A stretch of DNA of 64,000 nucleotides from Minisyncoccia bacterium (GCA_050011835.1 JBEKII010000001.1:172262-236261); one strand, 5' to 3'. Counted from the stretch's first letter, positions 5,343-27,720 are shown. The notes: generated by a model from the letters alone, not told the origin. Numbers and translations: made by a program.

Positions 5343-5350
5343 ATATAGAA

Positions 5351-6121
5351 TTACTTCTCCGCAGCGGTTGAAGTTGCTATCGTTGACGTCGCGGTGAGAA
5401 GCGCAGCTATCGTATCTGCACTTATAAGGAGACCGGGCGTCGTTCCCTCTCCAATACCAACAAGATTGCCCGAGAGGTCAACCGCCGCGCTTCCGGCTCC
5501 AATATCGGGCAAGGTGGTGTGAATGCCTTTTTCGTTCACACTCGCGACAATGCCGGTGGCAGCAGAACCGTCGGCAGTGAGAGCGAGTACTGTTTCACCA
5601 AGTTTCAACCCGCCAGTCGCGACAAGAGATGGTGCCGTCGCCTTAGGCAAAGTTGCGCTATCGGCAAAACCGTAGATCGCAATCCCATTTCCATCGTGTG
5701 CGAGAGATGCGGCATCGTATGAGCCGTTCGGAAACCCAATGAGCACCTCTTTCGGCAATATGTCTTGTGCCGCAGTCGCGACGGCACGCGACTTCGGGAG
5801 ATACGTACCGATGGCGATGGCTGGCGTTGACGTGCCGGTATCCGCGGCATAGATGGCGACAGCGCGAGTTGCATCCGCTCCGATCGCCGCCGTCACGAGG
5901 TCTTGATTTGACGGCGCAGGAGCTTGAACGACCGCAGCTGGCGCCGCGGTTGCAACGGTCTCTATGGTATGCTCAATGACGCGATTTACCGTTTGGGTCA
6001 CGAAGGGCGGCGCCTGGTCAAGCAGAGAGACCGTCAGAATACCGGTCGCGACAGACGTCACGAAATTCACAAGAATCGTGAGCAGTATGAGTTGAGATTT
6101 GGAGAGTTCCTCTATGTTCAT
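5351..6121 (-). CDS. membrane-anchored trypsin-like peptidase-domain protein (possibly degenerate)
   Basis: N-terminal TM; C-terminal GAGSAAVDLSGNLVGIGEG resembles the GNSGGPL..G.vIGIN serine-protease box but the catalytic residues are not clearly conserved. Confidence 0.35.
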   Translation of the reverse strand: MNIEELSKSQLILLTILVNFVTSVATGILTVSLLDQAPPFVTQTVNRVIEHTIETVATAAPAAVVQAPAPSNQDLVTAAIGADATRAVAIYAADTGTSTPAIAIGTYLPKSRAVATAAQDILPKEVLIGFPNGSYDAASLAHDGNGIAIYGFADSATLPKATAPSLVATGGLKLGETVLALTADGSAATGIVASVNEKGIHTTLPDIGAGSAAVDLSGNLVGIGEGTTPGLLISADTIAALLTATSTIATSTAAEK

Positions 6122-7387: not shown

Positions 7388-8113
7388 CTACGGTTGTTCA
7401 ATAAGCTGATAATCGCGAGGGAAAAGATATTGGGCGATCTTAAATATGCCATACGTCATAAAAGGAGCCGCGAGCACGTCTATGGAGTAATGCACGTGCG
7501 CGAAGAGCACCGCAATGCCAAAAATGAGAGTGAGCGAAAGAAGAATGTTGCGCAAAAATCGCTCTCTCCAAAAAATGAGCGACATGAGAAACGGTAGCCC
7601 GGTGTGTCCCGAGAAAAAGAATCCGGTCTGCAAATTAAAATAGGAGTAGATGTTATCAAAAAATCCAGGGCCCGGGTCTATATGGCCCGGATAAATACCG
7701 ATGTGAGTGAGAGACATAAACAACGCGCGAACTATGATGAGAATTGCTAAAGCCTTGAGAGAAAAGAGAATGTAACGCGGCCTGAAGAAAACGATAAACA
7801 ACGTGGCGACGACAAGAGTAATCATCGCGCCTTCAACAATAATAAAATTCAAATTGACCACGGGAAGATTGTCTAAGAGAAGGTCACCGACGTAGGTGGA
7901 CGTGGGACGCATTGAATACGCAAGCGCATAAACCATGGCGAAGTGTTCGCACACAAACGAGATACAGAGCAATATCAGCGCCTTTATAAATGAACGCAAC
8001 CACGTGGGTTTAATGAGGTCTCCACGAGTGAACGGGATCGGGTCGTGCGGTTCTTCCAGCACAAAAGATGAGATAAAAACGCGAGTAAAAAAATGTGAGT
8101 CGCGCGGTTCCAT
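7388..8113 (-). CDS. PAP2-superfamily integral membrane phosphatase / phospholipid phosphotransferase-like
   Basis: Multi-TM; PAP2 motifs FFRPRY (KX6RP), FSGHTG (PSGH), HVHYSIDV (SRX5HX3D). Confidence 0.6.
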   Translation of the reverse strand: MEPRDSHFFTRVFISSFVLEEPHDPIPFTRGDLIKPTWLRSFIKALILLCISFVCEHFAMVYALAYSMRPTSTYVGDLLLDNLPVVNLNFIIVEGAMITLVVATLFIVFFRPRYILFSLKALAILIIVRALFMSLTHIGIYPGHIDPGPGFFDNIYSYFNLQTGFFFSGHTGLPFLMSLIFWRERFLRNILLSLTLIFGIAVLFAHVHYSIDVLAAPFMTYGIFKIAQYLFPRDYQLIEQP

Positions 8114-8272
8114 AGCTAATTATTCTGTAGTGTACCAGACGACTTCATTTGACGACACAAGACGTATTTGCTATTGTGGGGACATCAACCAGCGCTGGAT
8201 CCAAAGAAGTGGGATCGAGCTTCTATCTTCGGCTACTGATTTGATATCTTAGTCACACAATTTATCTCTCGT

Positions 8273-8482
8273 ATGCAAAACGGTACGGTAATTAAAAAGA
8301 ATGAGAGAGGCTTCGGCTTCATCAAAGTTGACGGCGCGCCGGAAGGCGCGAAGGACCTCTTCTTCCATTCCAATGAGCTCAAGAACATTTCGTTCGACGA
8401 ACTCCGGGAAGGCGATAAGGTCTCCTTCGAAGTTGGCGACAGCCCGAAAGGACCAAACGCCCTCAGCGTCAGCAAGATCTAA
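8273..8482 (+). CDS. cold-shock protein (CspA family)
   Basis: GTVIKKNERGFGFIKV RNP motifs, 69 aa, long 5' leader (about 160 nt). Confidence 0.85.
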   Translation: MQNGTVIKKNERGFGFIKVDGAPEGAKDLFFHSNELKNISFDELREGDKVSFEVGDSPKGPNALSVSKI

Positions 8483-8501
8483 GTATTTAGGTCGTTGAAA
8501 G

Positions 8502-8531
8502 AAATCCCGCTAGAAGCGGGATTTCTTTTTT
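8502..8531. terminator. rho-independent terminator between convergent csp and cupin genes
   Basis: AAATCCCGC-tagaa-GCGGGATTT hairpin followed by CTTTTTTT; U-tract on + strand, A-tract on the other side, so may serve both. Confidence 0.6.
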
Positions 8532-8940
8532 ACTCGGTGGTTTTACCGTCAAAGTGTTCTTCTTGCTCATCTGCTTTCGTCGCGTGAACCGTTCCGTCTT
8601 TATGGTTCGGAGGCGAATAAAGTGTATAGAGTTTCAAGTCATCAGAACCGGTATTGATGACGTTATGCCACGCACCCTCCGGTACGATAACGGAGTCGCC
8701 GTCTTTTACTGTATGCTCCACGCCATCGAGCACCACTTTCCCCTGCCCCGATTCGAAACGAAAGAATTGGTCCAGATGATGCACTTCATTGCCAATCTCT
8801 TCGCCCGGAGCAAGAGACATGAGCACGAGCTGGCTGTGCTTCGCGGTATAGAGTACCCGCCGATAATCGGTATTTTCTTTGGTCGCTTGTTCAATATGTG
8901 TGACGTATCCTTTCATATTTTTTATATTATATTTATTCAT
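8530..8940 (-). CDS. cupin-domain protein
   Basis: Cupin_2-like core (GEEIGNEVHHLDQFFRFESGQGKVVLDG..HTVKDGDSVIVPEGAWHNVINTG); ORF opens with TTG at 8970, first ATG at 8940; start uncertain. Confidence 0.6.
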   Translation of the reverse strand: MNKYNIKNMKGYVTHIEQATKENTDYRRVLYTAKHSQLVLMSLAPGEEIGNEVHHLDQFFRFESGQGKVVLDGVEHTVKDGDSVIVPEGAWHNVINTGSDDLKLYTLYSPPNHKDGTVHATKADEQEEHFDGKTTE

Positions 8941-8977
8941 TTTGATTTTAGCATACGTGGATGGTGTCAAATGCCGT

Positions 8978-9709
8978 ATGATGTACGCTATGCCCGTACC
9001 GTTCGCGCCGAATGCGAAAAAAACGCTTGAGATCTCTGCCGCGGGCGTCCGTTATCTGCGGCTTCCTGTGAAAACGCGACTCATACAAACTGGGGATAAT
9101 TTATTCAAACTTCTTGAAGAATACGTCGCACCGCACCTAGAGCCGGGTGACATGCTTTTCGTGAGCGAAAAAATCGTTTGCATTACGCAGGACCGCATCA
9201 TCCGCCGCGATGACGTAAAAACATCCTGGCTCGCGCGATTTCTCTCACGGCATGTGCACAATTATGCCGGCACGCCGGAGTTCCGCGGTCTCGGACACGG
9301 CACTGCGCCAGCAATGCAGCTTCTCATAGAAGAGGCGGGATATCCGCGTGTTCTTTTCGCCGCGTTTGTCACGGCGCTCACACGCCCGCTTGGCATCAAG
9401 GGCGCGTTCTATTATCTTGTCGGCAAACAGGCAAAATCAATTGACTGTCCGATGTCGTGGACACTCGCACCATATACGGAATACGCGAAACTTGCGCCAC
9501 TTCGGCCCAACGAAGTCGCGCGTGAAATAAAAAAACGCTTTGGCGTTGAAACCGTCATCGTTGACGCAAATTATCGCGGCGCTTTCTCGCTCGGGAAATC
9601 AACTCGCGTCATCAGCGAAAAATTCATCCGCGACGTGTTGCGCGACAATCCCGCTGGACAAGACAGCGAAATGACTCCTTTTCTTATTATCCGCAAAGCT
9701 GTCACGTAG
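8978..9709 (+). CDS. CofE-like (F420-0:gamma-glutamyl ligase family) protein
   Basis: TGDNLFKLLEEYVAPHLEPGDMLFVSEKIVCITQDRII and ...KKRFGVETVIVDANYRG resemble the CofE fold; start taken at internal ATG 8978 because upstream part overlaps the cupin gene. Confidence 0.5.
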   Translation: MMYAMPVPFAPNAKKTLEISAAGVRYLRLPVKTRLIQTGDNLFKLLEEYVAPHLEPGDMLFVSEKIVCITQDRIIRRDDVKTSWLARFLSRHVHNYAGTPEFRGLGHGTAPAMQLLIEEAGYPRVLFAAFVTALTRPLGIKGAFYYLVGKQAKSIDCPMSWTLAPYTEYAKLAPLRPNEVAREIKKRFGVETVIVDANYRGAFSLGKSTRVISEKFIRDVLRDNPAGQDSEMTPFLIIRKAVT

Positions 9710-11491: not shown

Positions 11492-12577
11492 CTACCAGAG
11501 CTCATACCCGGGCCACTCCCATGGCAGATGCGCGGTAGATGCTTTCTGATTATTAGGTGGCAGATTGGCCATAAATCTGTCTCCGTACGGACGATTACCG
11601 TCTGGAAACAAAATTACAACGTGGATTCTGCCGTCATCATTACGAAGTGAGTCAAAGGTCGCCCCGGTGACATTTTCCTTACATCGTCGGAGGAACCGAA
11701 GCGCCCCCAAATAAGCGAGCCCACTACTGGGACCAACGGTGATTCCCATCGTCCAATTGAACCACGAAGCTGCCAAATATGAAGGTCTCCTTTGAATTTC
11801 AATATAATCGTCCAGTGCTTCTCGCCAGGGCAAAGTAATTTCCTCCATGCGGTTGAGGTCTCTGACTCCGGGAATCTCTTGCCCCGAAGACAGAAGTACT
11901 CCCACAATTCTGATATTCTTTAGCTTTCTGCGAAGATATTCACTGACTCCAATCAGTGTCCCTCCTGTACCGATCCCGGCAACAAAGACCGCCGGCGGAT
12001 AAACGGCTCGATTCAAGATTCTTGGCGCAGTGAGTTCCGCATGTAATTCCGTGTTAGCTGGGTTGGCATACTGGTCAAGATTGAGAACGCCATTTTCGGC
12101 ATGCCAACCTTCGGCCTTCCATCCGCCACCTCCCAATTTTCTTGCTGTACCGATAACGCTCAAACCTTCTTCAGGAGGAATGATATCCGCCCCTGCCAGA
12201 AGGAGTGGGTATCTCTTCCCGTCCGGCAAGTCAGGCGCGACCACAAGCTTAACGTGCGGTATGCCGAACGACTTCGCCATAGCCGCGAGCACGACGCCAG
12301 TGTTACCGGATGTCGCCTCCACTAAGGTATGCACGCCCCGGAGCATTCCGGATCCCTCGGCTCTCAATAACATGCCATATACGGTGAGAAATTTTATATT
12401 CTCATACGGCAAATGAGACGCAAGCGCTACCGAAATGTCGACTCCGTCATCCTTAAAAGGATTCAATTTGTCTGAAATCGGAAAAACCGGCAACGGCCAA
12501 TTACGCCAGCACTTCAAGTAATGACTACGTTGTTCTTTCATCTCTTTCTCCTTTCCTTTCTGAGATTTAAAAAACAA
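11492..12577 (-). CDS. PLP-dependent (PALP fold) cysteine synthase/CBS-like enzyme
   Basis: VEATSGNTG, G-rich loops (GIGTGGT) typical of the tryptophan-synthase-beta/cysteine synthase fold. Confidence 0.6.
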   Translation of the reverse strand: MFFKSQKGKEKEMKEQRSHYLKCWRNWPLPVFPISDKLNPFKDDGVDISVALASHLPYENIKFLTVYGMLLRAEGSGMLRGVHTLVEATSGNTGVVLAAMAKSFGIPHVKLVVAPDLPDGKRYPLLLAGADIIPPEEGLSVIGTARKLGGGGWKAEGWHAENGVLNLDQYANPANTELHAELTAPRILNRAVYPPAVFVAGIGTGGTLIGVSEYLRRKLKNIRIVGVLLSSGQEIPGVRDLNRMEEITLPWREALDDYIEIQRRPSYLAASWFNWTMGITVGPSSGLAYLGALRFLRRCKENVTGATFDSLRNDDGRIHVVILFPDGNRPYGDRFMANLPPNNQKASTAHLPWEWPGYELW

Positions 12578-12634
12578 AATCGCCCATGAAGGGCTTCCGA
12601 GCGGAAGAGTACGCCGAATTATGACTTTTGCAAA

Positions 12635-13009
12635 CTACGTTGGTCGCCAGCCTTTTTCCACCTCGGTAATGCGATTTTTATCATCCATAAAAACAACCGT
12701 GGGACTTACCTTAAGCGCATCCTTTGAATCAACCCACGCCTCGCCAAGAATGACGACCTTGTCGCCTTTCTGGAAGAGTCGCGCCGGCGGACCGTTGAGA
12801 ATGATGTCTCCCTTCCCTTTCTTGCTTTTTATAATATAGGTGCGCCAGAGAACAGCATTTGACACATTCGTAATCTGCACCATCTGCCCCGGCAAGAGCC
12901 CGGCCGCCTCAAGCAGGGTTTCATCTATCGTGATGGAGCCGACATAGTTGAGGTCAGCGTCGGTTACCGTCGCCCGATGTAATTTCGCGATACAAACATT
13001 TATCAACAT
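12635..13009 (-). CDS. panD: aspartate 1-decarboxylase
   Basis: MLINVCIAKLHRATVTDADLNYVGSITIDE...; conserved KLHRATVT and GSITID (pyruvoyl Ser) motifs; start at internal Met of the ORF. Confidence 0.8.
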   Translation of the reverse strand: MLINVCIAKLHRATVTDADLNYVGSITIDETLLEAAGLLPGQMVQITNVSNAVLWRTYIIKSKKGKGDIILNGPPARLFQKGDKVVILGEAWVDSKDALKVSPTVVFMDDKNRITEVEKGWRPT

Positions 13010-13057
13010 ACGAGAAGTATAGCATATGTGCGTTGCCACTCTCACTATGCTGTATAA

Positions 13058-14260
13058 ATGGTATTGTTAAAAGAATTTGATATGAATCTTTCTTTCTTGG
13101 TAAACATTGTTGCACTGCTCTTTTCTTTTTTCGTCATCGGAGCGGTGCTCGGCGCCGTTTTCTCTAAGCCAGTACGAAAAAAACTCGTTGCATTCTTACG
13201 CTTTGAGTATCTTCCGCGCCTCTTGCTCAATAAATCCTCGTGCAATCCAATCATCAAGCCGGGAACTCATCCTTGGACTGCAGAAGCGGTCATGAATCCG
13301 GCGGCGATTGTCCTTGATGACCGAACCCATCTCGTCTTCCGCGCGATCGGCATGGATGGCGTATCGCGACTCGGTTATGCCAGTAGCGCGAACGGTATCG
13401 TTTTTGACAAGCAATTGCCGTACCCTATCTACATCGCACAAAGCCCCCGGAGGATTCCAAGTTACCGGCGCCGATTCTCACCAGTCATGTATCCTTCAGG
13501 CGGCAGCTGGGGTGGATGTGAGGACCCACGCATGGTTGTCATAGAAGGGCGCGTGTATATCACCTTTAATATGTTTGATGGTTGGGATTTCATCCGTGTC
13601 TCCACGATCTCAATTGCAGAAAATGACTTTATGACTGAACGATTTTGGAAATGGGACGGTCCGTATCTCCTCTCGCCGCCACGACAAATCCATAAAAATT
13701 GGGTTCTCTTCCCAGAAAAAATTAGTGGGAGATTCGCCATTCTCCATAGCATTGCTCCCGAAATAGAAATCGCTTATCGCGATTCAATTGAGGATATCGG
13801 CACAGAAGAACCTTTCATTGAAAGCTGGGTCGGGGCGCGCTTCGATCTTCCGGAGCGAGAAAATACCTGGGACAGTTTCGTCCGAAATCCTGGGCCCCCG
13901 CCGATACGGACCGACCGTGGATGGCTTCTTTTTTATCACGCGTTTCATAAATCCGACCGAGAGGCATCAATCGGATATCGTATTGGCGCAATGCTTCTCG
14001 ACTTCGCTGACCCGACCAAAGTACTCTATCGCTCTGCCGCACCCGTCATTTCGCCTGAAGAAAATTACGAAAATCATGGCAATAAGTTCGGCGTCGTCTA
14101 CGCATGCGGCGCGGTCGTCCGTGATGGCACGCTCTTTGTTTATTACGGCGGTTCTGATAAAGTCGTGTGCGTTGCGACCGCGCCCTTAGATGCTTTCCTC
14201 GATGCGCTCGCTGCGGGCAGCCAACCGCGGCTGAATGAGCAAAATGCCCAAACTCCCTGA
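13058..14260 (+). CDS. GH130-family glycoside phosphorylase (mannoside-phosphorylase-like), membrane-anchored
   Basis: N-terminal TM; NPAAI, GCEDPRMV, and C-terminal YACGAVVRDGTLFVYYGGSDK motifs of the GH130/DUF377 5-bladed propeller family. Confidence 0.7.
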   Translation: MVLLKEFDMNLSFLVNIVALLFSFFVIGAVLGAVFSKPVRKKLVAFLRFEYLPRLLLNKSSCNPIIKPGTHPWTAEAVMNPAAIVLDDRTHLVFRAIGMDGVSRLGYASSANGIVFDKQLPYPIYIAQSPRRIPSYRRRFSPVMYPSGGSWGGCEDPRMVVIEGRVYITFNMFDGWDFIRVSTISIAENDFMTERFWKWDGPYLLSPPRQIHKNWVLFPEKISGRFAILHSIAPEIEIAYRDSIEDIGTEEPFIESWVGARFDLPERENTWDSFVRNPGPPPIRTDRGWLLFYHAFHKSDREASIGYRIGAMLLDFADPTKVLYRSAAPVISPEENYENHGNKFGVVYACGAVVRDGTLFVYYGGSDKVVCVATAPLDAFLDALAAGSQPRLNEQNAQTP

Positions 14261-15278
14261 CGTGACGCAAGAATCCAGAGCATATATTCAACACATTGGG
14301 AAAGTCATCGAAAATGATGCCCGTTTTAAGTATGTTATGGCCTTAACGCTTAATCCGCGTTCTGGAAACCGGGAAGGGGTCATCAGATGTATTACGAGCA
14401 GAAAAGGGAAAGAAGGCGTCGCTGGTCAAATTGACAGAAGCGTATTGCATAAAGTGAAAGGCAAATCCCTCGAGCACTTTGAGATCGGAGAAAAAATTCG
14501 CATCAAGCTTCAGGAAAAGATTATTAAAAAGTTTTCTAGGAAAAATATTGATTTCTTAGGACTGGAGGATCCAGATATTTGGGTTGATGAAAAGACAAAT
14601 CTCATACATTTATATTTCACTATACCTTTAATCGCTAAGAAGAAGACATGGATTCATCTCGGCCATGCTTTTGGAAAAGATTTGGATAATCTGAATATGA
14701 CAATGCCAGTGTTAATGGCGGGTAGGAGAGGAGGTGCAAAAGAAGTTAGTATTGCGCCGCTAAATAAAAAAGGATCGAGATACAATCTTGTTGAATCCTC
14801 GGACAAAATAAAAGATACCTATTTCTCAGTTGTTCGAACAGCTATCGCTAGAGATATGGGCAAACCTTGGAAATTTGGAAAAATAGTTTTTCATCCCGGG
14901 AGACAATCTGCTCGCTGGATTGCCGGACATGCGTCGCCCGGGCCATTTCTTCCTAGTACATTTATCGATATCGGTCCCGGTAGACGAGTAGGGATCATGA
15001 ACGGGTGTGGGGCTAATAAAATAATCGGAGGGGAAACAAAGTATGGGACTTTCTCGATCGGTCTCTTTATATACGATTATGAAAAAGGAAAAATCGATTG
15101 GGTTTCTCCGAAACCTTTTATCCAAGATAGCCAGGCAGGCAAGGTGAGAGCCATTACGTTTGCGAGCCAATTTGTGGAAACGAATCCGGGCAAAGGAATT
15201 CTTTATGCACATGTCAATGACTCTTTTGTACGCGCATATACGTTGTATGCTGAAGGCATTCAAGCGTTGCTTCCTTAA
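14235..15278 (+). CDS. divergent GH130-like beta-propeller protein
   Basis: GLEDPDIW aligns with GCEDPR box; C-terminal ...ILYAHVNDSFV like GH130 end; Lys-rich and AT-richer than neighbours; 26-nt overlap with upstream gene. Confidence 0.45.
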   Translation: MSKMPKLPDVTQESRAYIQHIGKVIENDARFKYVMALTLNPRSGNREGVIRCITSRKGKEGVAGQIDRSVLHKVKGKSLEHFEIGEKIRIKLQEKIIKKFSRKNIDFLGLEDPDIWVDEKTNLIHLYFTIPLIAKKKTWIHLGHAFGKDLDNLNMTMPVLMAGRRGGAKEVSIAPLNKKGSRYNLVESSDKIKDTYFSVVRTAIARDMGKPWKFGKIVFHPGRQSARWIAGHASPGPFLPSTFIDIGPGRRVGIMNGCGANKIIGGETKYGTFSIGLFIYDYEKGKIDWVSPKPFIQDSQAGKVRAITFASQFVETNPGKGILYAHVNDSFVRAYTLYAEGIQALLP

Positions 15279-15283
15279 TTATT

Positions 15284-17200
15284 ATGTTCGTCATCCGCCG
15301 AGAACCAAGTAATCCCATCCTCGCGCCACAACGCGAACGGCCGTGGGAATCGGTCGCAACGTATAACCCTTCTGCGGTTCGTACTCCCGAAGGTGTGCGG
15401 CTTTTTTATCGCGCGCTTGGGAATCCCAATGTGCTTCAAACGCCGACCGCTGAATTATCAAGTATCGGCACAGCTTTTGCTGAAGACGGCGTTCATTTCC
15501 ATTCGCGCCAACAGGTAATTATTCCAGAGGAATCGTGGGATGTGTTTGGGTGCGAAGACCCGCGCGTTACCTTTTTTGAAGGAAAATGGTACTGCTTCTA
15601 TACCGCGCTCGGCGGCTACCCTTTCGGTCCCGATAATATCAAAGTCGCTCTCGCTATCGGCGACACACCGGACCATTTTACAGAGCGCCACCTCATCACG
15701 CCATTTAATGCAAAAGCAGCGACGCTTTTCCCCGAACGCATTGATGGCGATATCGTGCTCCTTTTAACCACACATACCGACTGGACTCAAGAATATCCGC
15801 GACCAACTATCGCGCTTGCGCACGCGAGGCGAATAGAAGATTTTTTTGATACCGATTATTGGCACCGCTGGCATGACCATCTTGCCGATCATGCAATTCA
15901 TGAACTGCGCCGCGATGACGGCGACCATGTTGAAGTCGGCGCATCGCCTTTATTGACCGAAGACGGCTGGTTACTTATCTATTCTTATATCCAGAATTAC
16001 TATGACGAGCAAAAACGCATTTTTTCAATTGAAGCCGCGCTTCTCAACCGCGATAATCCGCAAAAGCTTATCTCGCGTACCGAGTCCTTTCTCGTACCAC
16101 AAGAGTTTTACGAGGAATACGGCCTCGTACCGCATATCGTCTTCCCCACGAGCGTAACAGTAACTAACGATACCTGCCTTGAAATTTGGTATGGCGCGGC
16201 CGATACTGTTTGCGCCAAGGCGAACGTGAAGCTTCCCGACCTTCTGCGCGCGCTTGACCCCGAACGGCCAGCGCGGACTTTCACACGCGCCGCGAACAAT
16301 CCCATCCTCGCGCCTCGCGGTGAAGGATTTGAAAATCGTGAAGTGATAAACGCCGCCGCTGTTGAGCTTAATGGCTTGATATACCTTCTCTACCGCGCGA
16401 TGGACGCCGCCAGTACTTCCACCATCGGGCTTGCGACCTCAAAAGACGGACTCACCATTGACGAGCGGCTGCCCGAACCTATTTATATCCCGCGCCAGGA
16501 ATTCGAAAAGAAACACGGAAGCCCTACCGGCAATTCTGGGTGCGAAGACCCGCGTATCGTGCGCATCGGCGACACGCTCCATATGACATACACCGCATAC
16601 GACGGCGTCCATGCGCCTGCAGGGGCGATCTCGTCAATCGGCGTTGACGACTTCCTCGCGCGGCAATGGCAGAAGTGGAACGCGCCTTTCATCCTGACGC
16701 CAGAAGGCGTCGACGATAAAGACCTCGCGCTTCTGCCTGAAAAAATCGGCGGGAATTACCTGCTTTACCATCGCATTAATAATCAAATCTGCGCCGACCT
16801 CTTGCCTGACCTCGTCTCGGGTAAACGCGCGAGCCGCGGCATAAAAATTATAGGGCCGCGCCTCGGCATGTGGGACGGCGCCAAGGTCGGCAGTACGGCA
16901 CCGCCGATTAAAGTCGGTGACAAATGGCTGATGATCTACCATGGCATCTCACGCCACGCGACGTATCGTCTCGGCGCCGCACTTCTCGGCGCTGACGGAC
17001 TCACGGTCCTTGCGCGCACCGCCGACCCAATCTTTGAACCATTGGAGAAATACGAGAAAGAAGGCGCCGTTCCGAATGTTGTCTTCTCTTGCGGCATCGT
17101 AGTGCGCGATGACACCGTCTTCCTTTATTACGGCGGCGCCGATAAAGTCCTCGGCGTCGCAACCGCCTCGCTCGCTCATATCGTTGACGCGCTTTCTTAA
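15284..17200 (+). CDS. tandem-duplicated GH130-family glycoside phosphorylase (two GH130 domains)
   Basis: Two repeats each with NPILAP... and GCEDPR(V/I) boxes and ...VVFSCGIVVRDDTVFLYYGGADKV end. Confidence 0.7.
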   Translation: MFVIRREPSNPILAPQRERPWESVATYNPSAVRTPEGVRLFYRALGNPNVLQTPTAELSSIGTAFAEDGVHFHSRQQVIIPEESWDVFGCEDPRVTFFEGKWYCFYTALGGYPFGPDNIKVALAIGDTPDHFTERHLITPFNAKAATLFPERIDGDIVLLLTTHTDWTQEYPRPTIALAHARRIEDFFDTDYWHRWHDHLADHAIHELRRDDGDHVEVGASPLLTEDGWLLIYSYIQNYYDEQKRIFSIEAALLNRDNPQKLISRTESFLVPQEFYEEYGLVPHIVFPTSVTVTNDTCLEIWYGAADTVCAKANVKLPDLLRALDPERPARTFTRAANNPILAPRGEGFENREVINAAAVELNGLIYLLYRAMDAASTSTIGLATSKDGLTIDERLPEPIYIPRQEFEKKHGSPTGNSGCEDPRIVRIGDTLHMTYTAYDGVHAPAGAISSIGVDDFLARQWQKWNAPFILTPEGVDDKDLALLPEKIGGNYLLYHRINNQICADLLPDLVSGKRASRGIKIIGPRLGMWDGAKVGSTAPPIKVGDKWLMIYHGISRHATYRLGAALLGADGLTVLARTADPIFEPLEKYEKEGAVPNVVFSCGIVVRDDTVFLYYGGADKVLGVATASLAHIVDALS

Positions 17201-17201
17201 A

Positions 17202-17957
17202 ATGAAAACCATTCCTCGCGTAATCATTTTTGACCTTGACGGCACGCTGACCGAAAGCAAGCAGCCGCTTACTCCGGAAGTGGGAGTGTGGCTTGCGCGC
17301 TTGGTGCTTAAGATGCCAGTTGCTGTGATGAGCGGCGGTTCCTATGCACAATTCCAAAAGCAATTTTTAGGCAATATGCCCAAAGATGCTGATTACAAAA
17401 ATCTATATCTTTTCCCCGCAAGCGCCACGCAGTGCTACGCATGGAAAGACGGCAGTTGGCGCATTCTCTATAACAATCTTTTCACTCCTGAAGAAAAATC
17501 TCATGTATTGCAAGCGCTTGCGGAGTCCCTCAAAGAAACGGATCTCGGTCATCCGCCGCAACTCTGGGGCGAACAAATTGAGGATCGCGGGTCGCAAATC
17601 ACTTGGTCGGCGCTCGGGCAACAGGCGCCTGTTGAAACGAAAAAGGCATGGGACCCGGACAGGGAAAAACGTTTGCCGCTCCAGAGAGCTCTTCTTCGGC
17701 GGATTCCTGATTTCTCAATTCGTATCAATGCGACGACTTCCATCGACATAACACGCAAGGGCATTACAAAAGCATATGGCATACGACAATTTTCAGAAAT
17801 TATTGCGACACCCGTTTCTGCGATGCTTTACGTCGGTGACGCTCTTTTCCCGGGGGGCAATGACGAAATCGTGAAAGAAACGGGGATTGAAACACAACAA
17901 GTCGATGGCCCGGACGAAACTGTAGAAATAATAGAAGGACTGCTTACCCTCGCATAA
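17202..17957 (+). CDS. HAD-IIB hydrolase, eukaryotic-type phosphomannomutase (PMM)-like
   Basis: IFDLDGTLT (DxDGT nucleophile motif) at N-terminus; C-terminal YVGDALFPGGNDEIV matches PMM2 FGDKTMPGGNDHEIF. Confidence 0.6.
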   Translation: MKTIPRVIIFDLDGTLTESKQPLTPEVGVWLARLVLKMPVAVMSGGSYAQFQKQFLGNMPKDADYKNLYLFPASATQCYAWKDGSWRILYNNLFTPEEKSHVLQALAESLKETDLGHPPQLWGEQIEDRGSQITWSALGQQAPVETKKAWDPDREKRLPLQRALLRRIPDFSIRINATTSIDITRKGITKAYGIRQFSEIIATPVSAMLYVGDALFPGGNDEIVKETGIETQQVDGPDETVEIIEGLLTLA

Positions 17958-19656
17958 GTCGCACGAGACGGATAGTTTCAAAAGAATAGCGGCCGCGAAG
18001 CGCATGGAAGACGGGCGAAAGGCGCTTGCTGCCGTTCTCGGCAAACGCCTCATGTATTTCATCAACTGCGCCGAGTGGCACGAGATGCGCGAAATCGGCG
18101 CGCGTCAATTTCCCCATTTCGGAAAGTTCCTCCAGATGTTTTACGATAGTGCTTATTGTCAATCCACGCTCTTTTGCTGCTTCTTTTAAATTTTTCGCAT
18201 CGCGTGCAGCTTGGAGCGTTTCCGCTAACCTCCCGGGCAAGTTCCTTTCGCGCGCGCCGCTTTGCGGCACGCGTTTTGTATCCGTATTCTCCATCCACGC
18301 CCCGCCCATTGCTTTTACAAACTTTTTCTGCATGGCGAGCGTTTCCGCTTCCGGCATTTCCGCGAATGCATCCCGCGCCGCGTCTGACGCGGCGCGAAAA
18401 TCCCTATCTTTCTTCAAAATTTCCGGATGTACTTGTAGCGCGCGTTCATTCATGCCCGTGAGATACAATCCCGAAAGCCGCCGTACTCGCGAGAGCGCAA
18501 CGTACCCCTGTCCGTATTCAAACGCTTTTGAAAGGTCAATAACCGCGGCATCCATGCTCATTCCTTGGCTTTTGTGCACCGTCATCGCGTAAGCGAGCCG
18601 GAGCGGTATCTGCGAGATGCTCGCGCGCACCTTGCCCCGCTCCTCAAGCTGCCATTCCATCGGCTCAGTAGTTATTCTCATGCCTTCCTTCGTTTTAATA
18701 ATCGGTAAATCGTCAGCGCTCCAGCCGCTGACGATGCCGAGCGTGCCGTTGACGAATTTCCCTTGAGGCGAATTCTTGGTAAACATCACTGCCGCACCTT
18801 CCTTCAGTTCCAAGATTTCCGGCGAGAGACAGCCGCGCATGAGTCCTTCTACAAGCGAGTCCTTCCCTTTTGAGCTCATGTGGAATTTCTTTGATTTGCC
18901 GGGAATTTTCGCAAGCTCGTCGGCATTGATACGGTCAACGTCGGCATTATGCGAAAAAAGTTTTGGCACCTCGCCCACGCTCGGTGTCTTTGACAAGGAC
19001 ATATGTCTCGATATGAGTCGTTCGCGGTGTTCTTCTTCAACTCGCCCTAAACGTATCGCCGAAAGTATGCCGAGAAATTCAGCATCGTCCTGCCGATATT
19101 GTTCGGTGATATAGCAGACGAGCGGATTCAACTCGCGCCAGACCGGCGACGCATAGGCGAATGCGCTGCCGCGATCGTGCGACACCGGCGGCAATTGGAA
19201 AAAATCGCCGACGAGAACGACCGGGAGCCCGCCGAACGGCGTATCAACGCGCCGCACCTCGCGGCATATAGCGTCCGCCATTTCAAATGTCGCCGCCGAA
19301 AGCATCGAGATCTCCTCAACGATAAGCACCTTCGCTTTCGTGATGCGCTTCGCGATATGTTCCTTGCTCGCGATGCGGTCCACATCGGCTCTCGTGAGCG
19401 ATTCGCTGATGCCGATGCCGCTCCACGAATGAAGCGTCATGCCGCCGACATGCGTCGCCGCGATACCGGTCGCCGCCGTTACCGAGGGTTCGATGCCCGA
19501 GGCGCGCAACCAATCAATATATTCATTTATCGTGTGCGTCTTCCCGCTCCCCGGCTCGCCAGTGAGGAATACGTTCGCGCCCGTCTTTAATATCGTGAGC
19601 GCCTCGCCTTGGGTCATTCGGACACTGTACCATCCTCTTTTTTGAATTCGAGGCAC
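17944..19656 (-). CDS. Pif1/RecD-family SF1B DNA helicase
   Basis: Walker A GEPGSGKTHTI, motif II LIVEEISM, Pif1-like layout with C-terminal UvrD_C_2-like region and HTH-like tail. Confidence 0.7.
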   Translation of the reverse strand: MPRIQKRGWYSVRMTQGEALTILKTGANVFLTGEPGSGKTHTINEYIDWLRASGIEPSVTAATGIAATHVGGMTLHSWSGIGISESLTRADVDRIASKEHIAKRITKAKVLIVEEISMLSAATFEMADAICREVRRVDTPFGGLPVVLVGDFFQLPPVSHDRGSAFAYASPVWRELNPLVCYITEQYRQDDAEFLGILSAIRLGRVEEEHRERLISRHMSLSKTPSVGEVPKLFSHNADVDRINADELAKIPGKSKKFHMSSKGKDSLVEGLMRGCLSPEILELKEGAAVMFTKNSPQGKFVNGTLGIVSGWSADDLPIIKTKEGMRITTEPMEWQLEERGKVRASISQIPLRLAYAMTVHKSQGMSMDAAVIDLSKAFEYGQGYVALSRVRRLSGLYLTGMNERALQVHPEILKKDRDFRAASDAARDAFAEMPEAETLAMQKKFVKAMGGAWMENTDTKRVPQSGARERNLPGRLAETLQAARDAKNLKEAAKERGLTISTIVKHLEELSEMGKLTRADFAHLVPLGAVDEIHEAFAENGSKRLSPVFHALRGRYSFETIRLVRLMRG

Positions 19657-20717: not shown

Positions 20718-21635
20718 CTACTGCGTGATGATGAGTGTACGACGGATCGCATCAAATGTCGCGAGAAGTTCTGGCTGATTGAATTCTTGCACCATGCCTG
20801 CTGGATAATTTTCAATAACGCCGTAGTGGATGAAATACCGCATCGCGATGCACGGATTCGTGCCCGGAAGCGCATAAACCGTTTCTTCATAGCGATTGCC
20901 CGCAGCCGCGCCGGTTGACGAAGCGACCAAATAAGTAACGTCGCCATCAGTAAGCGTGCTCGTGGCTATATTCTGCGGGTCCAAGAAGAGAGTTGCGGCG
21001 CATCCACCTGCCGGCGGATTGGTCTTAGAGATTTCTTCAACGCTTATATAAGAACCGGGAGAGAGATTGGTGCCCGTCGCCACCGATGCGGGAATGGTGA
21101 ATTTGATGCCGGAGATATCTTTGTCGGGACCGAGTTCCTGATATTGATACGATTCGTCAACGGTATAATCAGCCGGCAGGCGAATAGAAAAACCATACGT
21201 GCTGTTTGAATAAATTTGCGGAAGATCCTGTCCAGCGGGATTGGGCGCCACCGCGACACAGCCGATGTAGTTTTTTTCCTGATTGTTTTCCAGAACAAGA
21301 ACGCCGTTGCCTTTACTCCAAAACACGAAAGACTCGTCGGTATTCGCATAACGGACCCCGTCGGCAGAGATGGTCTGCGCGAGCGTCATGGTGCTTCCAT
21401 CGGAGAACGTGAGCGCAACGCTTCCGCTCGGAATCGGCGGCTGACCGGGGCCAGGGGCGGGTTTGGTCACGCCTTGATAATACGTTGCCGTAATGGTCTT
21501 TCCACCGTTACAAGAATATAAGACGGTAGTAATCGGCTGACTTGAAACCTGCGAGGGAGTATGCGTGAGCCACAACGCGAGAATCGCGACGACAACAATA
21601 ATGATAAGAACGATAATTTTTGTGTGGGTAGTCAT
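20718..21635 (-). CDS. membrane-anchored protein with MliC-like (lysozyme-inhibitor-type) domain plus C-terminal unknown domain
   Basis: TM then VLYSCNGGKTITATYYQ...VALTFSDGSTMTL..SADGVRYANTDESFVFWSKGNGVLV pattern of MliC. Confidence 0.45.
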   Translation of the reverse strand: MTTHTKIIVLIIIVVVAILALWLTHTPSQVSSQPITTVLYSCNGGKTITATYYQGVTKPAPGPGQPPIPSGSVALTFSDGSTMTLAQTISADGVRYANTDESFVFWSKGNGVLVLENNQEKNYIGCVAVAPNPAGQDLPQIYSNSTYGFSIRLPADYTVDESYQYQELGPDKDISGIKFTIPASVATGTNLSPGSYISVEEISKTNPPAGGCAATLFLDPQNIATSTLTDGDVTYLVASSTGAAAGNRYEETVYALPGTNPCIAMRYFIHYGVIENYPAGMVQEFNQPELLATFDAIRRTLIITQ

Positions 21636-23883: not shown

Positions 23884-24813
23884 TTAATTGCTGTTTCCGA
23901 GATCTGCCTCAACTTTGGCGATAGTCGCTTGATCAACTCCAAAGGATTGAAGTATCGATATGATTGCATTTACTTGCGCGGTCGTAAGACCAGCACCGCC
24001 GGAGCCAGAAGAAGAGGTCGTCTCCGGAGTTGTCGGTACAACGCCCTTATTCAAGAGAGCGAGCGTGAGCGGACCGACATAGCCCGTTTGCGGCAGGTTA
24101 TTCGCCTTTTGAAAGGCAATTACCGCCGCCTTCGTGAGTTGGCCGAAGTAGCCAGAAATCGTACCGGAATAGAATCCTTCGTCCGTGAGGAACTGCTGGA
24201 GCGCCGTTACATCAGCGCCGCGCGAGCCAACCGTGAGATTTTTGGTGAAGTTGTATGCGGCGGCACCGAGCACCTGACCTTGATGGGAAGTTGTGGTCGT
24301 TATGGCCGGTGTAGTGACCGGTACAAAGACCGGACTTATAGAACCACTAGAACCACCTCCGCCAGAGCTACCTAAAGGAACCGGTGTAAGGGTTGTGAAG
24401 GCGGATGTAGGTGTAATGGTGTATGTGTACGACGCGACGGTTGAGAACTGACCATCAGAATAGCATGAGATTGCCTCAATAGTCATTGTCGAACTCACGG
24501 GAATTGGACTGGAATAGACTGTTCCTGTAGATCCTGCAGAACAACCCAACAGTGTTGATCCATCAGTCCCGTAATGGATGCTTGATGCTCCATCGGCGGT
24601 CAAGGTCACGCTTTGCGCTGAATTGTATGAACCAGCGGCAGGAGTTGCTACCGGTGGTGCAATAACGACGCCGTTAACGGTGGCGCCAAGAGTGGCATTA
24701 AGACCTGTAGACAAGGTCCCTGTTACGGTATCAGCCAGTGCAACATTACTAATCGCAAACAGCCCAATCACGGCTGCCGCGAATACAGATGATTTCAGGA
24801 TAATTTTGTTCAT
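23884..24813 (-). CDS. secreted protein with Ig-like N-domain and peptidoglycan-binding (PG_binding_1) domain
   Basis: Signal peptide; LTVGSRGADVTALQQFLTDEGFYSGTISGYFGQLTKAAVIAFQ matches PG-binding repeat. Confidence 0.6.
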   Translation of the reverse strand: MNKIILKSSVFAAAVIGLFAISNVALADTVTGTLSTGLNATLGATVNGVVIAPPVATPAAGSYNSAQSVTLTADGASSIHYGTDGSTLLGCSAGSTGTVYSSPIPVSSTMTIEAISCYSDGQFSTVASYTYTITPTSAFTTLTPVPLGSSGGGGSSGSISPVFVPVTTPAITTTTSHQGQVLGAAAYNFTKNLTVGSRGADVTALQQFLTDEGFYSGTISGYFGQLTKAAVIAFQKANNLPQTGYVGPLTLALLNKGVVPTTPETTSSSGSGGAGLTTAQVNAIISILQSFGVDQATIAKVEADLGNSN

Positions 24814-24825
24814 AGATTTTCAGGA

Positions 24826-27720
24826 TTAGCTAACTGTCAATGTAACGTTAAGGTTGGTCACCGCCCCCGTTGCATCCTCCACCGGTGCCGTGAGAACCCA
24901 TGTTCCCGCCGTTTCGAAGGTCTGCTCCGAATAAATCGATGGCGTCAACGTCCATACATTGTTAGTAGCGTCGTAAACCAAGTTGCCGTAGGTCGCACTG
25001 GTACTCATGCCCGTTCCGTTGATTGTCACTGGATAACTCGTGATGCTCGAGTTCGCCCCGGTTATATCCACGGTCGCCGACGTCATGTAGTAGGCGGGCG
25101 GAGTAGTGGACATATCCTGAGGCACGGTAATCGTCCAGTTCACTCCGGAACCGACAGAAGTGATGCTGGGGGGAAGGCCGCTACCGTTCAGTGTGATGCT
25201 AGAGATTGCTAGCGGTGCCGCCCAACCATTCGTGTTGGTGATAGTAAGAGCAACTGTGACAGATGTTCCGTTGACATTCCCAGTCAATGTATATGTTCCC
25301 GCCGGGAAGTTGGCCGGGATGAACATTGGAGATGGATTGCCAACAGAATCTTGTGTTCCGTCTTGGATTTTGTAGTTTGTTCCATCATAGGTTATGTAGA
25401 ACATCGCTGTCTGAGTTGTTGCACCCGGAAGCGTGTTGATCAGATGCTGACCCCAAGTAGAATTCAGATTTGCTGAGTCTGCTAACTGGTTTGCTTTGTA
25501 GTACGCGCTTAGGTCAACTCCGCCCGTTGAGGTCAGCATAAATGAGATTTTTGCTGAACTTGTTAACGTCACATTGAATGGATCTGTCGCTGTGCTACTG
25601 AATTGAATTGACGTGTCACCCGTAACGGTCAACGCCGCTGTAAGTGCAGGTCCCGAACCGGCTGCAGTTCCATTGGTTAAACCGACCGACGAGTTCCAGG
25701 CCGGAGTAACTGCTGGAGTGGTGAAATTCAAGACGGTGCCAGGATACCATGTCCCGTTGACATAAGACCATGCTGCGAAGTAATACGTTGTTTTCGGTGT
25801 AACCGAGAGCCCGCTGACTGACGAAAGAGGAGCAGAAAAAGAGGCATTCGCATCGATAGGGCCAGAAATGTCTCCGTCGTTGTAAACTCCGGTTGGAGGG
25901 ACTGACGACCCTGTGCTGAACGTAGACGTTGAAACCCAGAATGAGTACTCACTAGCAATAGCATTCCCATTAATTCCATTCAGTGTTGCGCCAGTCGAAG
26001 TTACATCACGGGCAGCAACCGTCAGAGTGGTAAGAGGAATAGGATCAAATACAGCCGAGAGTATATGGTGTGTAGTAACATTTGTGAAGGTATAACTAGC
26101 GTCTGTATTTCCTGTGATCCATGCGAATCCCGTCTGACCAACTACCGATTGACCATCGACAAGCACATCTGAAATGTAGTAGTTCTGATCTGCAGTAATT
26201 TCATATGTTGGACTGCTAAATGTTGGGGTAACTGCGCTTATAGAACCTCCATTGCTATCGGAAATAGTAATGTTTTGGTTGGCTTCAATTACAATAACTG
26301 TCCTTATCACTTCTATCGCATGATTGCCGGCTGCGTCAACGGAATCATATGTCACGTGGTACGTACCCGATATTGAAGGATTTACAACGTCTCCACCAAT
26401 CGTGACAAGATCTGTGCCATCAACAATATCTGTGGCTACCGCTCCGAGTTCTGTATAAGTTCCGCCGACTACTATGTAGGTCGGATTGCCAGTGTTGCCA
26501 GAGCCGTTCAGTGTGATAATCGGTATATTCACAACGATGTCAAAGGTCGCTGAGTTGGAGCTGCCCGCGTGATTGCTGTCGCCATCATAAGTTGCATTGG
26601 CTGTCGCCGTGCCGACGTCAACGTTGCCCGTATAGGTTGGCGTAAGTTGGCCGCTCTGTCCATCGGAAGTCGAGTAGGAAGCGGTGCATGGTGTAAGGGC
26701 TAAACCGGTGTAAGGCTGAGGAGAAGCGGGGCAAGAGACCGTGGTGACAGACGCGGCTTGTGCGACTGTAACCGTGCCGTTCACATAAGCGATGGTGTAG
26801 TTGGAATCAACTGCGCCGGTGCAGGACGAGACCGTTCCCGAGACCGAACAAGTCGGTTGAGTGGTGAGTGAAGCATCGGTGTCGCCGTTAACGAATCCTA
26901 AATAGGTCGGAGTGATTGTGGGCGGTGTGCCGCCATAGGTCATCGTGCCGTCAGAAGCCGTGATGGTGAGTGGTGCCTTTACAGTGAATGAAGCGGTTGT
27001 TGAAGCAGGATAAAAGTCAGGACTACCGGCTTGCGATGCTTCAAGAGTAACAGCGCCGACGCCAGTTATCGTGGTTGTTGAGTCATTAATCGTTACTGGT
27101 CCGGAAACAACGCTGAATATGATAGGCAGCAAACCGGATGTCGAAGTTGCGGTTAAACCAAACGGCGCATCTCCAAAAGTTTTATCTGAAAGAGGTCCAA
27201 ACGAAACAGTCTGACTTGCCGGAGGATTGGTGGTAATGCCATAACTCGTCGAATATGATCCGCCTGCTGCACCCTCTGGAACTTGTGCCTCTACAGTTAT
27301 TTGAATCTGTCTGCCTCCTTGATGCATATCAAGATCTTCATTGGGGTTCAAATACATTGGACTGCTTAATGTGCTAGACGCAGTTATGCCAATGGCTTGG
27401 TCTTCGTCAGTGGCGTTTAACGACTGAGCGGAATAAAATTGAATGTTGCCATCTGCTGGTATGTAACCAAGAGCACTCGTCCAATCGTCAAATTCCATCT
27501 GTAAAATAGTTTGGTCCTTTGGAACAGTCACATCAAAAACCCATTTCCATCCTTTATCATATCCCCTGCCTGCGGTTGCATATGTTTGTACTGCTATGAT
27601 TTGTGTTACGCCCAAGACAACAGTCGGAGCATCAGCTAACGCGGAAGGAACAGAAATCCCGAAAACTAGAACGGAAAGAAGAACGGGGAGAGAAACGCGC
27701 AGTGCATTTTTCATATTCAT
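24826..27720 (-). CDS. giant secreted surface protein with Ig-like / MBG(YGX)-like repeats
   Basis: Signal peptide, 964 aa, Thr/Ser/Gly-rich, repeated TxTYxG..NGDT..NYxI..V.GTLTV motifs. Confidence 0.6.
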   Translation of the reverse strand: MNMKNALRVSLPVLLSVLVFGISVPSALADAPTVVLGVTQIIAVQTYATAGRGYDKGWKWVFDVTVPKDQTILQMEFDDWTSALGYIPADGNIQFYSAQSLNATDEDQAIGITASSTLSSPMYLNPNEDLDMHQGGRQIQITVEAQVPEGAAGGSYSTSYGITTNPPASQTVSFGPLSDKTFGDAPFGLTATSTSGLLPIIFSVVSGPVTINDSTTTITGVGAVTLEASQAGSPDFYPASTTASFTVKAPLTITASDGTMTYGGTPPTITPTYLGFVNGDTDASLTTQPTCSVSGTVSSCTGAVDSNYTIAYVNGTVTVAQAASVTTVSCPASPQPYTGLALTPCTASYSTSDGQSGQLTPTYTGNVDVGTATANATYDGDSNHAGSSNSATFDIVVNIPIITLNGSGNTGNPTYIVVGGTYTELGAVATDIVDGTDLVTIGGDVVNPSISGTYHVTYDSVDAAGNHAIEVIRTVIVIEANQNITISDSNGGSISAVTPTFSSPTYEITADQNYYISDVLVDGQSVVGQTGFAWITGNTDASYTFTNVTTHHILSAVFDPIPLTTLTVAARDVTSTGATLNGINGNAIASEYSFWVSTSTFSTGSSVPPTGVYNDGDISGPIDANASFSAPLSSVSGLSVTPKTTYYFAAWSYVNGTWYPGTVLNFTTPAVTPAWNSSVGLTNGTAAGSGPALTAALTVTGDTSIQFSSTATDPFNVTLTSSAKISFMLTSTGGVDLSAYYKANQLADSANLNSTWGQHLINTLPGATTQTAMFYITYDGTNYKIQDGTQDSVGNPSPMFIPANFPAGTYTLTGNVNGTSVTVALTITNTNGWAAPLAISSITLNGSGLPPSITSVGSGVNWTITVPQDMSTTPPAYYMTSATVDITGANSSITSYPVTINGTGMSTSATYGNLVYDATNNVWTLTPSIYSEQTFETAGTWVLTAPVEDATGAVTNLNVTLTVS

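Follow-up and report, generated by a model that had tools for sequence, protein, structure and literature searches.

A conserved gene cluster of Minisyncoccia with four GH130-fold domains and a HAD-type mutase, a probable operon for β-1,2-mannoside utilisation

Gene organization of the locus

The locus described here lies within 64,000 nucleotides of DNA from a Minisyncoccia bacterium (GCA_050011835.1 JBEKII010000001.1:172262-236261), a stretch that is called the window in its full length, and comprises four genes, here named A to D. Genes A, B and C encode proteins of the GH130 fold with four such domains among them, and gene D encodes a HAD-type mutase. An ORF check bore out the four open reading frames (ORFs) that an earlier note, made from the sequence alone, had placed on the plus strand. 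These ORFs and their main features are as follows.

13058-14260, plus strand: ORF of gene A, 400 amino acids, membrane-anchored GH130 protein
13094-13162, plus strand: predicted transmembrane anchor of A, residues 13-35, FLVNIVALLFSFFVIGAVLGAVF, 23 hydrophobic residues, then basic KPVRKK
14235-15278, plus strand: ORF of gene B, 347 amino acids, GH130-like five-bladed β-propeller fold
15284-17200, plus strand: ORF of gene C, 638 amino acids, tandem GH130 protein
15284-16258, plus strand: N-terminal GH130 domain of C (C-N), residues 1-325, phosphate ligands replaced
16259-17200, plus strand: C-terminal GH130 domain of C (C-C), residues 326-638, complete β-1,2-mannoside phosphorylase signature
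17109-17957, plus strand: ORF of gene D, HAD-IIB mutase of the phosphomannomutase (PMM)/PgmH type, 17202-17957, 251 amino acids

The probable start of A is the ATG at 13082, as alignments with orthologues begin at residue 9. For B it is the GTG at 14262, which gives a protein of 338 amino acids and matches a 338-amino-acid NCBI product, and for D it is the ATG at 17202, aligned to PDB entry 4BND and to orthologues. With these starts the intergenic gaps are 1 nt between A and B, 5 nt between B and C and 1 nt between C and D. The block is bordered on the upstream side by panD, a divergent gene for aspartate decarboxylase, and downstream by a convergent PIF1-like helicase gene, the 3' ends of the helicase gene and D overlapping by 14 nt (17944-17957). 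A scan of positions 12400-18300 for promoter and terminator consensus sequences returned counts at the level of shuffled sequence and was uninformative. Database entries identical to the products of B and C are annotated as hypothetical proteins.

Active sites of the GH130 domains

A and C belong to family GH130 by Pfam (PF04041, cut-off 26 bits), A with 114.8 bits (E 5.2e-33) and C with 280 bits in two stretches, which confirms the internal tandem duplication that the earlier note had described. Neither protein has a GH43 or GH32 assignment, the alternatives that had been named for them. A falls below the equivalog cut-off of the NCBIfam β-1,2-mannobiose phosphorylase model, and C-C reaches 360 bits against this model, under the equivalog cut-off of 450. 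A and C are therefore GH130 family members and not orthologues of a characterised enzyme. Three consecutive GH130 genes with four domains had been claimed; the assignment stands for A and for both halves of C by Pfam, while B is not recognized by sequence models.

The published criteria for a GH130 phosphorylase are an aspartate that acts as the proton donor and an Arg/His pair that binds phosphate, in place of which the GH130 hydrolases have carboxylates; a Glu beside the aspartate together with a Lys at the +1 subsite indicates β-1,2 linkage, as in GH130 subfamilies 3, 4 and 6. The reference residues are the donor D104 and the phosphate pair R168/H231 of UhgbMP, and E141/K199 of BT3780 for the β-1,2 linkage (PMC7660257 Table 2; PMC4599007). 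The corresponding sites of A, C-N and C-C were mapped by MAFFT alignment with 9FJ8, using 64 A and 72 C orthologues from related loci.

The proton donor corresponds to D156 in A, D92 in C-N, D422 in C-C and D112 in B, and is invariant in 64, 72, 72 and 27 sequences, respectively. The Glu/Lys pairs E155/K213 (A), E91/K144 (C-N), E421/K479 (C-C) and E111/K169 (B) are all invariant as well. The position of the phosphate-binding Arg follows this Lys at a spacing of 18 in 9FJ8 (K143-R161) and likewise in C-C (K479-R497), C-N (K144-T162), A (K213-S231) and B (K169-E187). Only C-C has both members of the Arg/His pair, R497 and H553, accompanied by K534 and Y561, in 72 of 72 sequences; the pair is incomplete or missing in A, C-N and B. 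All four domains thus carry the β-1,2 Glu and Lys signature and one of the four, C-C, is a predicted phosphorylase. The earlier claim of three phosphorylase genes with four phosphorylase domains does not hold, as C-C alone passes the published Arg/His criterion.

The tandem protein C

The signature of C-C comprises N356, R371, E421, D422, K479, R497, K534, H553, Y561 and D620, and all ten residues are invariant in the 72 orthologues. This half is the best-scoring Pfam stretch of the protein (residues 353-637) and its matches of known structure are 7FIP and 9FJ8 (best E 1.7e-48).

C-N keeps the sugar-site residues N28, R43, E91, D92, K144 and D307, which are found in 70-72 of the 72 orthologues, the shortfalls being alignment gaps. 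Its phosphate ligands are exchanged, with T162 for the Arg, S234 for the His and F247 for the Tyr. Across the orthologues the Arg position is Thr, Ser or Ala, with an invariant E217 nearby, the His position is Ser or Ala, and the Tyr is replaced by Phe. The same substitutions are present in the roughly 50%-identical proteins of two distant loci, L086 and L089, which indicates that they are ancient and under selection rather than products of decay. The AlphaFold2 (AF2) model of the 638-residue protein has a predicted template modelling score (pTM) of 0.86 and suggests that C is a fixed two-propeller unit.

The membrane-anchored paralogue A

The closest match of A in the PDB is 9FJ8, a β-1,2-oligomannan phosphorylase (E 4e-40). 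As the earlier note had proposed, A appears to be membrane-anchored: its residues 13-35 form a hydrophobic stretch, seen also in the consensus of the orthologues, and the basic KPVRKK comes after it. By the positive-inside rule, the anchor is predicted to have its N-terminus outside and its C-terminus inside, which would place the propeller in the cytoplasm. The A protein of L086 also has a transmembrane segment, followed there by GKKR. A secreted enzyme was considered and rejected, as the 23-residue hydrophobic stretch lacks a cleavage motif and precedes a basic cluster. The A-type GH130 protein of L089 (3227-4387), a Zambryskibacteria-like locus, begins with ~40 residues rich in Lys and Arg in place of the transmembrane helix.

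The sugar-site residues N80, R95, E155, D156, K213, H294, Y307 and D367 are kept in A, and the sugar site is invariant throughout the 64 orthologues, apart from one sequence with an ambiguous X at D156. The phosphate-binding His and Tyr (H294 and Y307) are thus retained, and the Arg position is occupied by Ser231, which among the orthologues is Ser in 54, Gly in five, Asn in three and Thr in two, and never Arg. R276 is near-invariant (63 Arg and one Lys among 64 sequences), and only A has the basic loop YRRRFSP.

The propeller protein B

B has no Pfam or NCBIfam match at E ≤ 0.01, and searches of the PDB by phmmer with the single sequence and by a 35-sequence profile gave no match, to GH130 chains or to others. 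Alignment of the B profile by hhalign to the profiles of A, C-N and C-C was not significant. An exhaustive search of 1.84 billion representative sequences with the B profile returned 128 clusters only and no bridge to GH130, which shows a narrow family that stays separate from GH130 at the sequence level. Of 27 divergent relatives of B, one has a sub-threshold match to GH130 (E 0.0044) and one to GH43. More than 1100 homologues (at 90% clustering) are 60-80% identical to B, every one of them annotated as hypothetical, and all those with a lineage name are from Patescibacteria.

The predicted fold of B is a five-bladed β-propeller closest to the solved GH130 structures. The link between B and GH130 comes from this fold comparison and from none of the sequence searches tried, so that the GH130 assignment made in the earlier note stands for B at the level of the fold and fails at the level of any family HMM (hidden Markov model).

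The residues invariant in the B family are R51, D67, S69, E111-D112 (in an EDP motif), G147, K169-E170, E187, W228, F273, G276, F309 and D329, of which E111, D112, K169 and D329 correspond to sugar-site residues and are, like E187, invariant in the 27 sequences, down to 24% identity. The equivalence of D112 to the proton donor is based on the G-x-EDP motif, on strand position and on a weak hhalign alignment. The remaining sites were mapped by the 18-residue spacing after the Lys, strand positions in the AF2 models of B and C and the insignificant hhalign alignment, and not by superposition. By this mapping, the phosphate-binding Arg is replaced by the invariant E187 and the His by N256, and the Tyr position is not conserved. 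The invariant Glu at the Arg site resembles the pattern of GH130 hydrolases. B lacks a signal peptide and a second Glu, and none of its residues could be matched to the -1-site Asn.

The gene differs from its neighbours in composition, with a GC content of 41.5% against 49-57% and a GC content at third codon positions (GC3) of 37.8% against 49-64%, and its product contains 9.7% Lys compared to 2-4.5% in A and C. B had indeed been described before as Lys-rich and AT-richer. Its GC3 is below that of the neighbouring genes in six of seven other loci. Besides the window, 8 of 67 loci carry B at the A-C junction; where it is missing, A and C are 7-75 nt apart or are separated by another insert. In Paceibacteria of lower GC content, B matches the local composition and is located elsewhere. 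The deviant composition and the sporadic presence fit the separate acquisition that had been proposed. In L089, B is again found directly before C, and this recurrence suggests that its insertion is not functionally random.

In two of these Paceibacteria loci the homologue of B lies within the ribosomal-protein gene string, between S10 and L3 in L087 (5001-6005) and between L2 and S19 in L088 (5001-6011). A protein of glycosidase-like type is unexpected there, and the position may mean that it is expressed constitutively and at a high level.

The loss of phosphate ligands in A (the Arg), C-N (Arg, His and Tyr) and B (Arg and His) raises the question whether these three are pseudoenzymes, that is, dead, structural or binding propellers, in which case the locus would provide one enzyme activity and a mutase. 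GH130 enzymes are oligomeric (PMC12814180), so the partner fused to C-C could be structural only, in line with the pTM of 0.86 for the AF2 model of C. This explanation is very unlikely, however, as the donor Asp is invariant together with the Glu beside it, the Lys and the distal Asp in the 64 A, 72 C-N and 27 B sequences, in B down to the most divergent relatives, which is unlike the pattern of decayed sites, and B has its invariant Glu exactly where the GH130 hydrolases place the base.

The HAD-type mutase D

D passes the Pfam PMM model (PF03332) marginally, with 26.1 bits against a cut-off of 22.4, and the HAD-IIB model TIGR01484 comfortably, with 64.6 bits against 41.8. It contains the motifs DLDGTLT (with the DLDGT nucleophile motif at nt 17232-17246) and GDALFPGGNDE. 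No HMM match to a sucrose-phosphate phosphatase or to a mannosyl-phosphoglycerate phosphatase, the two alternatives named in the earlier note, was obtained at E ≤ 0.01.

The closest relative of known structure is the α-phosphoglucomutase (α-PGM) from Lactococcus lactis (PDB code 4BND, E 1.2e-45, 37% identity), and matches to eukaryotic and protist PMMs are at E 3.6e-16 or weaker. D contains the sequence SALGQ where 4BND has SAIGQ and where human PMM2 and other PMM chains have SPIGR. The Arg of SPIGR is R141 of PMM2, a ligand of the substrate phosphate. The description of D as a eukaryotic-type, PMM-like HAD-IIB protein is thus borne out by the HMM scores and motifs, but not by its closer similarity to 4BND than to PMMs or by the Gln at the position of the Arg. 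For these two reasons a PMM activity of D would be deduced from the gene context and not from its sequence.

The context is provided by other loci. In L085 a D homologue, 59% identical, follows a gene encoding a cytidylyltransferase-like protein with a phosphomannose isomerase (PMI) domain and is surrounded by GT4 genes, a context that ties the HAD clade of D to mannose phosphates. Genes with PMI domains adjoin D homologues in L085, L086 and L089. Beside the D homologue of L085, within the same GT4 and GDP-mannose-type glycan cluster, are also found genes for bAvd and a reverse transcriptase (7785-9200), the signature of a diversity-generating retroelement.

The HAD gene that follows C is of two deeply split types at a single position (L004-L084). 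It is 64-72% identical to D of the window in 16 loci and 37-48% identical in 57 loci, the mean identity being 45% between the types and 62-70% within them, whereas the adjacent C gene remains 64-82% identical. In L018 (7950-8690) the position after C is taken by a third, Cof-like HAD-IIB gene. The filling of one slot by such divergent genes points to in-place replacement with retention of the functional class.

Conservation of the cluster

A scan with one genome per species identified 78 loci, all from Patescibacteria, in which C is 64-82% identical, a range that extends over about 80 species-level genomes. A is immediately upstream of C in all 67 loci where this could be assessed, and a D homologue is downstream of C in 71 of 72. 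The gaps between A, C and D are mostly of -12 to +50 nt, and in most cases C and D overlap or lie no more than a few tens of nucleotides apart. As the panD and PIF1 flanks are conserved as well in many of these loci, the A-C-D order alone could reflect synteny. Independent support for a functional unit comes mainly from L086 and L089, because much of the remaining conservation lies within this broader synteny.

In both of these loci C is 51% identical to that of the window. In L086, where the flanks are unrelated, the gene order is MFS (major facilitator superfamily) transporter, a 117-amino-acid cupin, A-type GH130, tandem GH130 and D, and the cupin resembles the PMI domain of bifunctional GDP-mannose pyrophosphorylase/phosphomannose isomerase (GMP/PMI) proteins. 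In L089 the order is D, PMI cupin, A, a toxin/antitoxin pair, B and C. The linkage in L086 and L089 and the in-place replacement of the HAD gene after C argue for functional coupling. The existence of a conserved module linked to mannose-phosphate metabolism is supported, in that A, C and D are colinear and the arrangement recurs at ~50% identity.

The junction between A and C is a hot spot of insertion, occupied in various loci by B, by MFS genes, by a GH125 gene, by a conserved ORF of ~160-220 amino acids without a Pfam match, by a pilin-like gene or by a YafQ-type toxin pair. Inserts are present in L041 and L042 (~4853-6001, MFS genes), L066 (4594-6001, minus strand, a GH125 α-mannosidase gene), L010, L011, L022, L031, L034, L075 and L089 (4460-4998). 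The linkage of the genes and their neighbours tie the cluster to mannoside handling.

A different explanation of the same gene order is that D is a housekeeping α-phosphoglucomutase of the PgmH type, functionally untied to the GH130 genes, and that its adjacency to C is inherited synteny. The L. lactis enzyme is indeed far ahead of any PMM as a relative of D (E 1e-45, 37% identity) and shares its Gln at the Arg position of PMMs, and the conserved panD and PIF1 flanks make the gene order partly uninformative. D nevertheless adjoins the tandem GH130 gene within the new flanks of L086 and stays with the rearranged cluster of L089, its start codon overlaps or abuts the stop codon of C in most loci, its slot has been refilled by divergent HAD-IIB genes, and PMI-domain neighbours are found in three independent arrangements. 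This makes an unconnected housekeeping role improbable.

Proposed pathway

On balance, the cluster is probably a cytoplasmic β-1,2-mannoside utilisation operon of this Minisyncoccia/Paceibacteria (Patescibacteria) bacterium. C-C would phosphorolyse β-1,2-manno-oligosaccharides to α-mannose 1-phosphate (Man-1-P), which D, translationally abutting C, would convert to mannose 6-phosphate (Man-6-P), and D may also interconvert glucose phosphates. A cupin-type mannose-6-phosphate isomerase, whose gene belongs to the cluster in some relatives and presumably lies elsewhere in this genome, would then form fructose 6-phosphate.

The canonical phosphate pocket is gone in A, C-N and B, which indicates that they are accessory and not ordinary phosphorylases. 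All three retain the GH130-type catalytic Asp and the +1-site residues of the β-1,2 type, for B according to an alignment based on secondary structure and spacing. They would be accessory enzymes or modules with altered nucleophile pockets, their most likely roles being the trimming or hydrolysis of substrates, in particular for B with its Glu at the phosphate-Arg site as in GH130 hydrolases, or the binding and hand-over of mannan chains, in particular for C-N, which would be rigidly fused to the active domain.

Several points weigh against this pathway, among them the possible synteny of most loci and the α-PGM-like features of D that are discussed above. The L. lactis α-PGM is reportedly inactive on mannose phosphates (Neves et al. 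2006). Pfam searches of 40 further ORFs and tblastn searches with the L086 genes found no gene for a PMI, an MFS or other transporter or an extracellular mannanase, and no other mannose gene, in the 64-kb window. The Arg/His rule is empirical, and A might bind phosphate through other residues, such as R276 and the YRRRFSP loop.

The same components could also operate in the opposite direction, with the cluster building and turning over an endogenous β-1,2-mannan, either a mannogen-like reserve or a membrane-proximal envelope glycan. D would then make Man-1-P from Man-6-P, A and C-N would be synthases that use Man-1-P, GDP-mannose or a lipid-linked donor, and C-C would phosphorolyse the polymer when carbon is needed. 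The β-1,2 GH130 phosphorylases, including the close relative Teth514_1788, are also glycosyltransferases with GDP-mannose (PMC12814180), and among the GT108 mannogen enzymes, which have the same fold and mechanism, the strict transferases have the phosphate Arg replaced (PMC10913872). A never has this Arg and is anchored on the cytoplasmic side of the membrane. C, moreover, looks like a core gene in a lineage with genomes of ~1 Mb, a transporter gene is absent from the cluster in most loci, and the D homologue of L085 is part of a GDP-mannose/GT4 biosynthetic cluster. On the other hand, all three phosphate ligands are missing from C-N, although the binding of GDP-mannose or Man-1-P would need them as well, and the Arg/His switch alone does not predict whether an enzyme is a transferase or a phosphorylase (PMC10913872). 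The MFS and GH125 genes of some clusters indicate uptake and breakdown, and neither the window nor most clusters contain a gene for GDP-mannose pyrophosphorylase. Such an anabolic or cycling function is the main rival of the proposed pathway, but a rather unlikely one. More doubtful still is its fullest form, in which Paceibacteria would run a mannogen-like β-1,2-mannan cycle, with A and C-N making or remodelling the polymer, C-C phosphorolysing it and B founding a new GH130-like glycosidase family that is so far confined to Patescibacteria, invisible to HMMs and equipped with a Glu base.

If mannoside utilisation is indeed the function, ATP-free phosphorolytic capture of β-mannosides would be a core route to carbon or glycan precursors in presumed epibionts, and the mannosides may be derived from the host. 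Patescibacteria have genomes of ~1 Mb with very few carbohydrate enzymes, and this clade spends four GH130-fold domains and a mutase on one conserved operon. The four domains present one fold with four nucleophile pockets, in that the phosphate site is complete in C-C, lacks the Arg in A, has lost every ligand in C-N and has Glu for Arg in B, a series that bears on the switch between phosphorylase, hydrolase and transferase in GH130 and GT108. The B family, with its more than 1100 sequences, is missed by HMM-based annotation of carbohydrate-active enzymes.

Neighbouring genes

The PIF1-like helicase encoded next to D has a C-terminal HTH_40 domain and is the conserved downstream neighbour in most of the related loci. 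Upstream of the cluster, at 8879-9709 of the window, lies a gene similar to that of the F420-0:gamma-glutamyl ligase (CofE), with a homologue at the corresponding edge of L004; it is unexpected, as the Patescibacteria lineage is not known to make F420. Three envelope-related genes, which may be relevant to an epibiotic lifestyle, follow a few kb downstream of the cluster.

20718-21635: 305-amino-acid protein with an MliC lysozyme-inhibitor domain
23884-24813: protein with PG_binding_1 and CHB_HEX_C domains
24826-27720: 964-amino-acid surface protein with MBG_2 and Ig-like domains

Comparison with known systems

That GH130 phosphorylases are coupled to PMM and PMI is textbook knowledge for the family (PMC4264767). 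Bimodular GH130-GH130 proteins are rare in CAZy, with 4 of 1592 entries in 2018, and none was placed among the 18 characterised enzymes of that survey; GH130 genes in genomes of the candidate phyla radiation (CPR) are mentioned in passing only. In the literature consulted, no description was found of an asymmetric tandem GH130 protein with one full and one phosphate-less site, of a membrane-tethered GH130 paralogue without the phosphate Arg, of a HAD/PgmH-type mutase partner with in-place replacement, or of the B family.

D is homologous over its full length to PgmH (4BND) and to PMM1 and PMM2, with which it shares the HAD-IIB cap and the DxDGT and GDxxxxGGND motifs. It differs from them in following GH130 genes and, in relatives, in adjoining PMI genes, and its Gln is shared with PgmH, unlike in PMMs.

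B is similar to the GH130_3 β-1,2-mannosidases BT3780 and BACOVA_03624 in keeping the Asp, Glu and Lys and in placing a Glu where the Arg would be (E227 of BT3780, E187 of B). The GH130_3 enzymes, however, match the GH130 HMM and are in most cases secreted, whereas B has no HMM match, signal peptide or obvious -1-site Asn. At the His position the GH130_3 enzymes have a Glu and B has an Asn.

The enzymes MTP1-7 of Leishmania GT108 and their bacterial relatives resemble the propellers of the cluster in the five-bladed fold, the single-Asp inverting mechanism and the β-1,2-mannan substrate. Their phosphate pocket also varies, between transferases and phosphorylases, and they are coupled to a HAD-type PMM of the host cell (PMC10913872). 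A and C differ from them in being GH130 proteins by HMM, and no mannan reserve is known from Patescibacteria.

The closest solved relatives of A and C-C are Teth514_1788 and Teth514_1789 from Thermoanaerobacter sp. X-514 (GH130_6; PDB codes 9FJ8 and 7FIP), which have the Glu and Lys signature in common with them. In Thermoanaerobacter as well, several adjacent GH130 genes are arranged in one direction and their products yield Man-1-P (PMC4264767). There, two separate polypeptides each form a full phosphorylase, while here two domains are fused with a single phosphate pair between them and one paralogue is membrane-anchored. The Teth514 cluster also contains an ABC transporter, a GH5 enzyme, a Man-1-P guanylyltransferase and a GT4 enzyme and feeds GDP-mannose synthesis, whereas the partner here is a HAD-type mutase. 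The locus is, in this comparison, a lineage-specific variant of a known sugar-salvage pathway.

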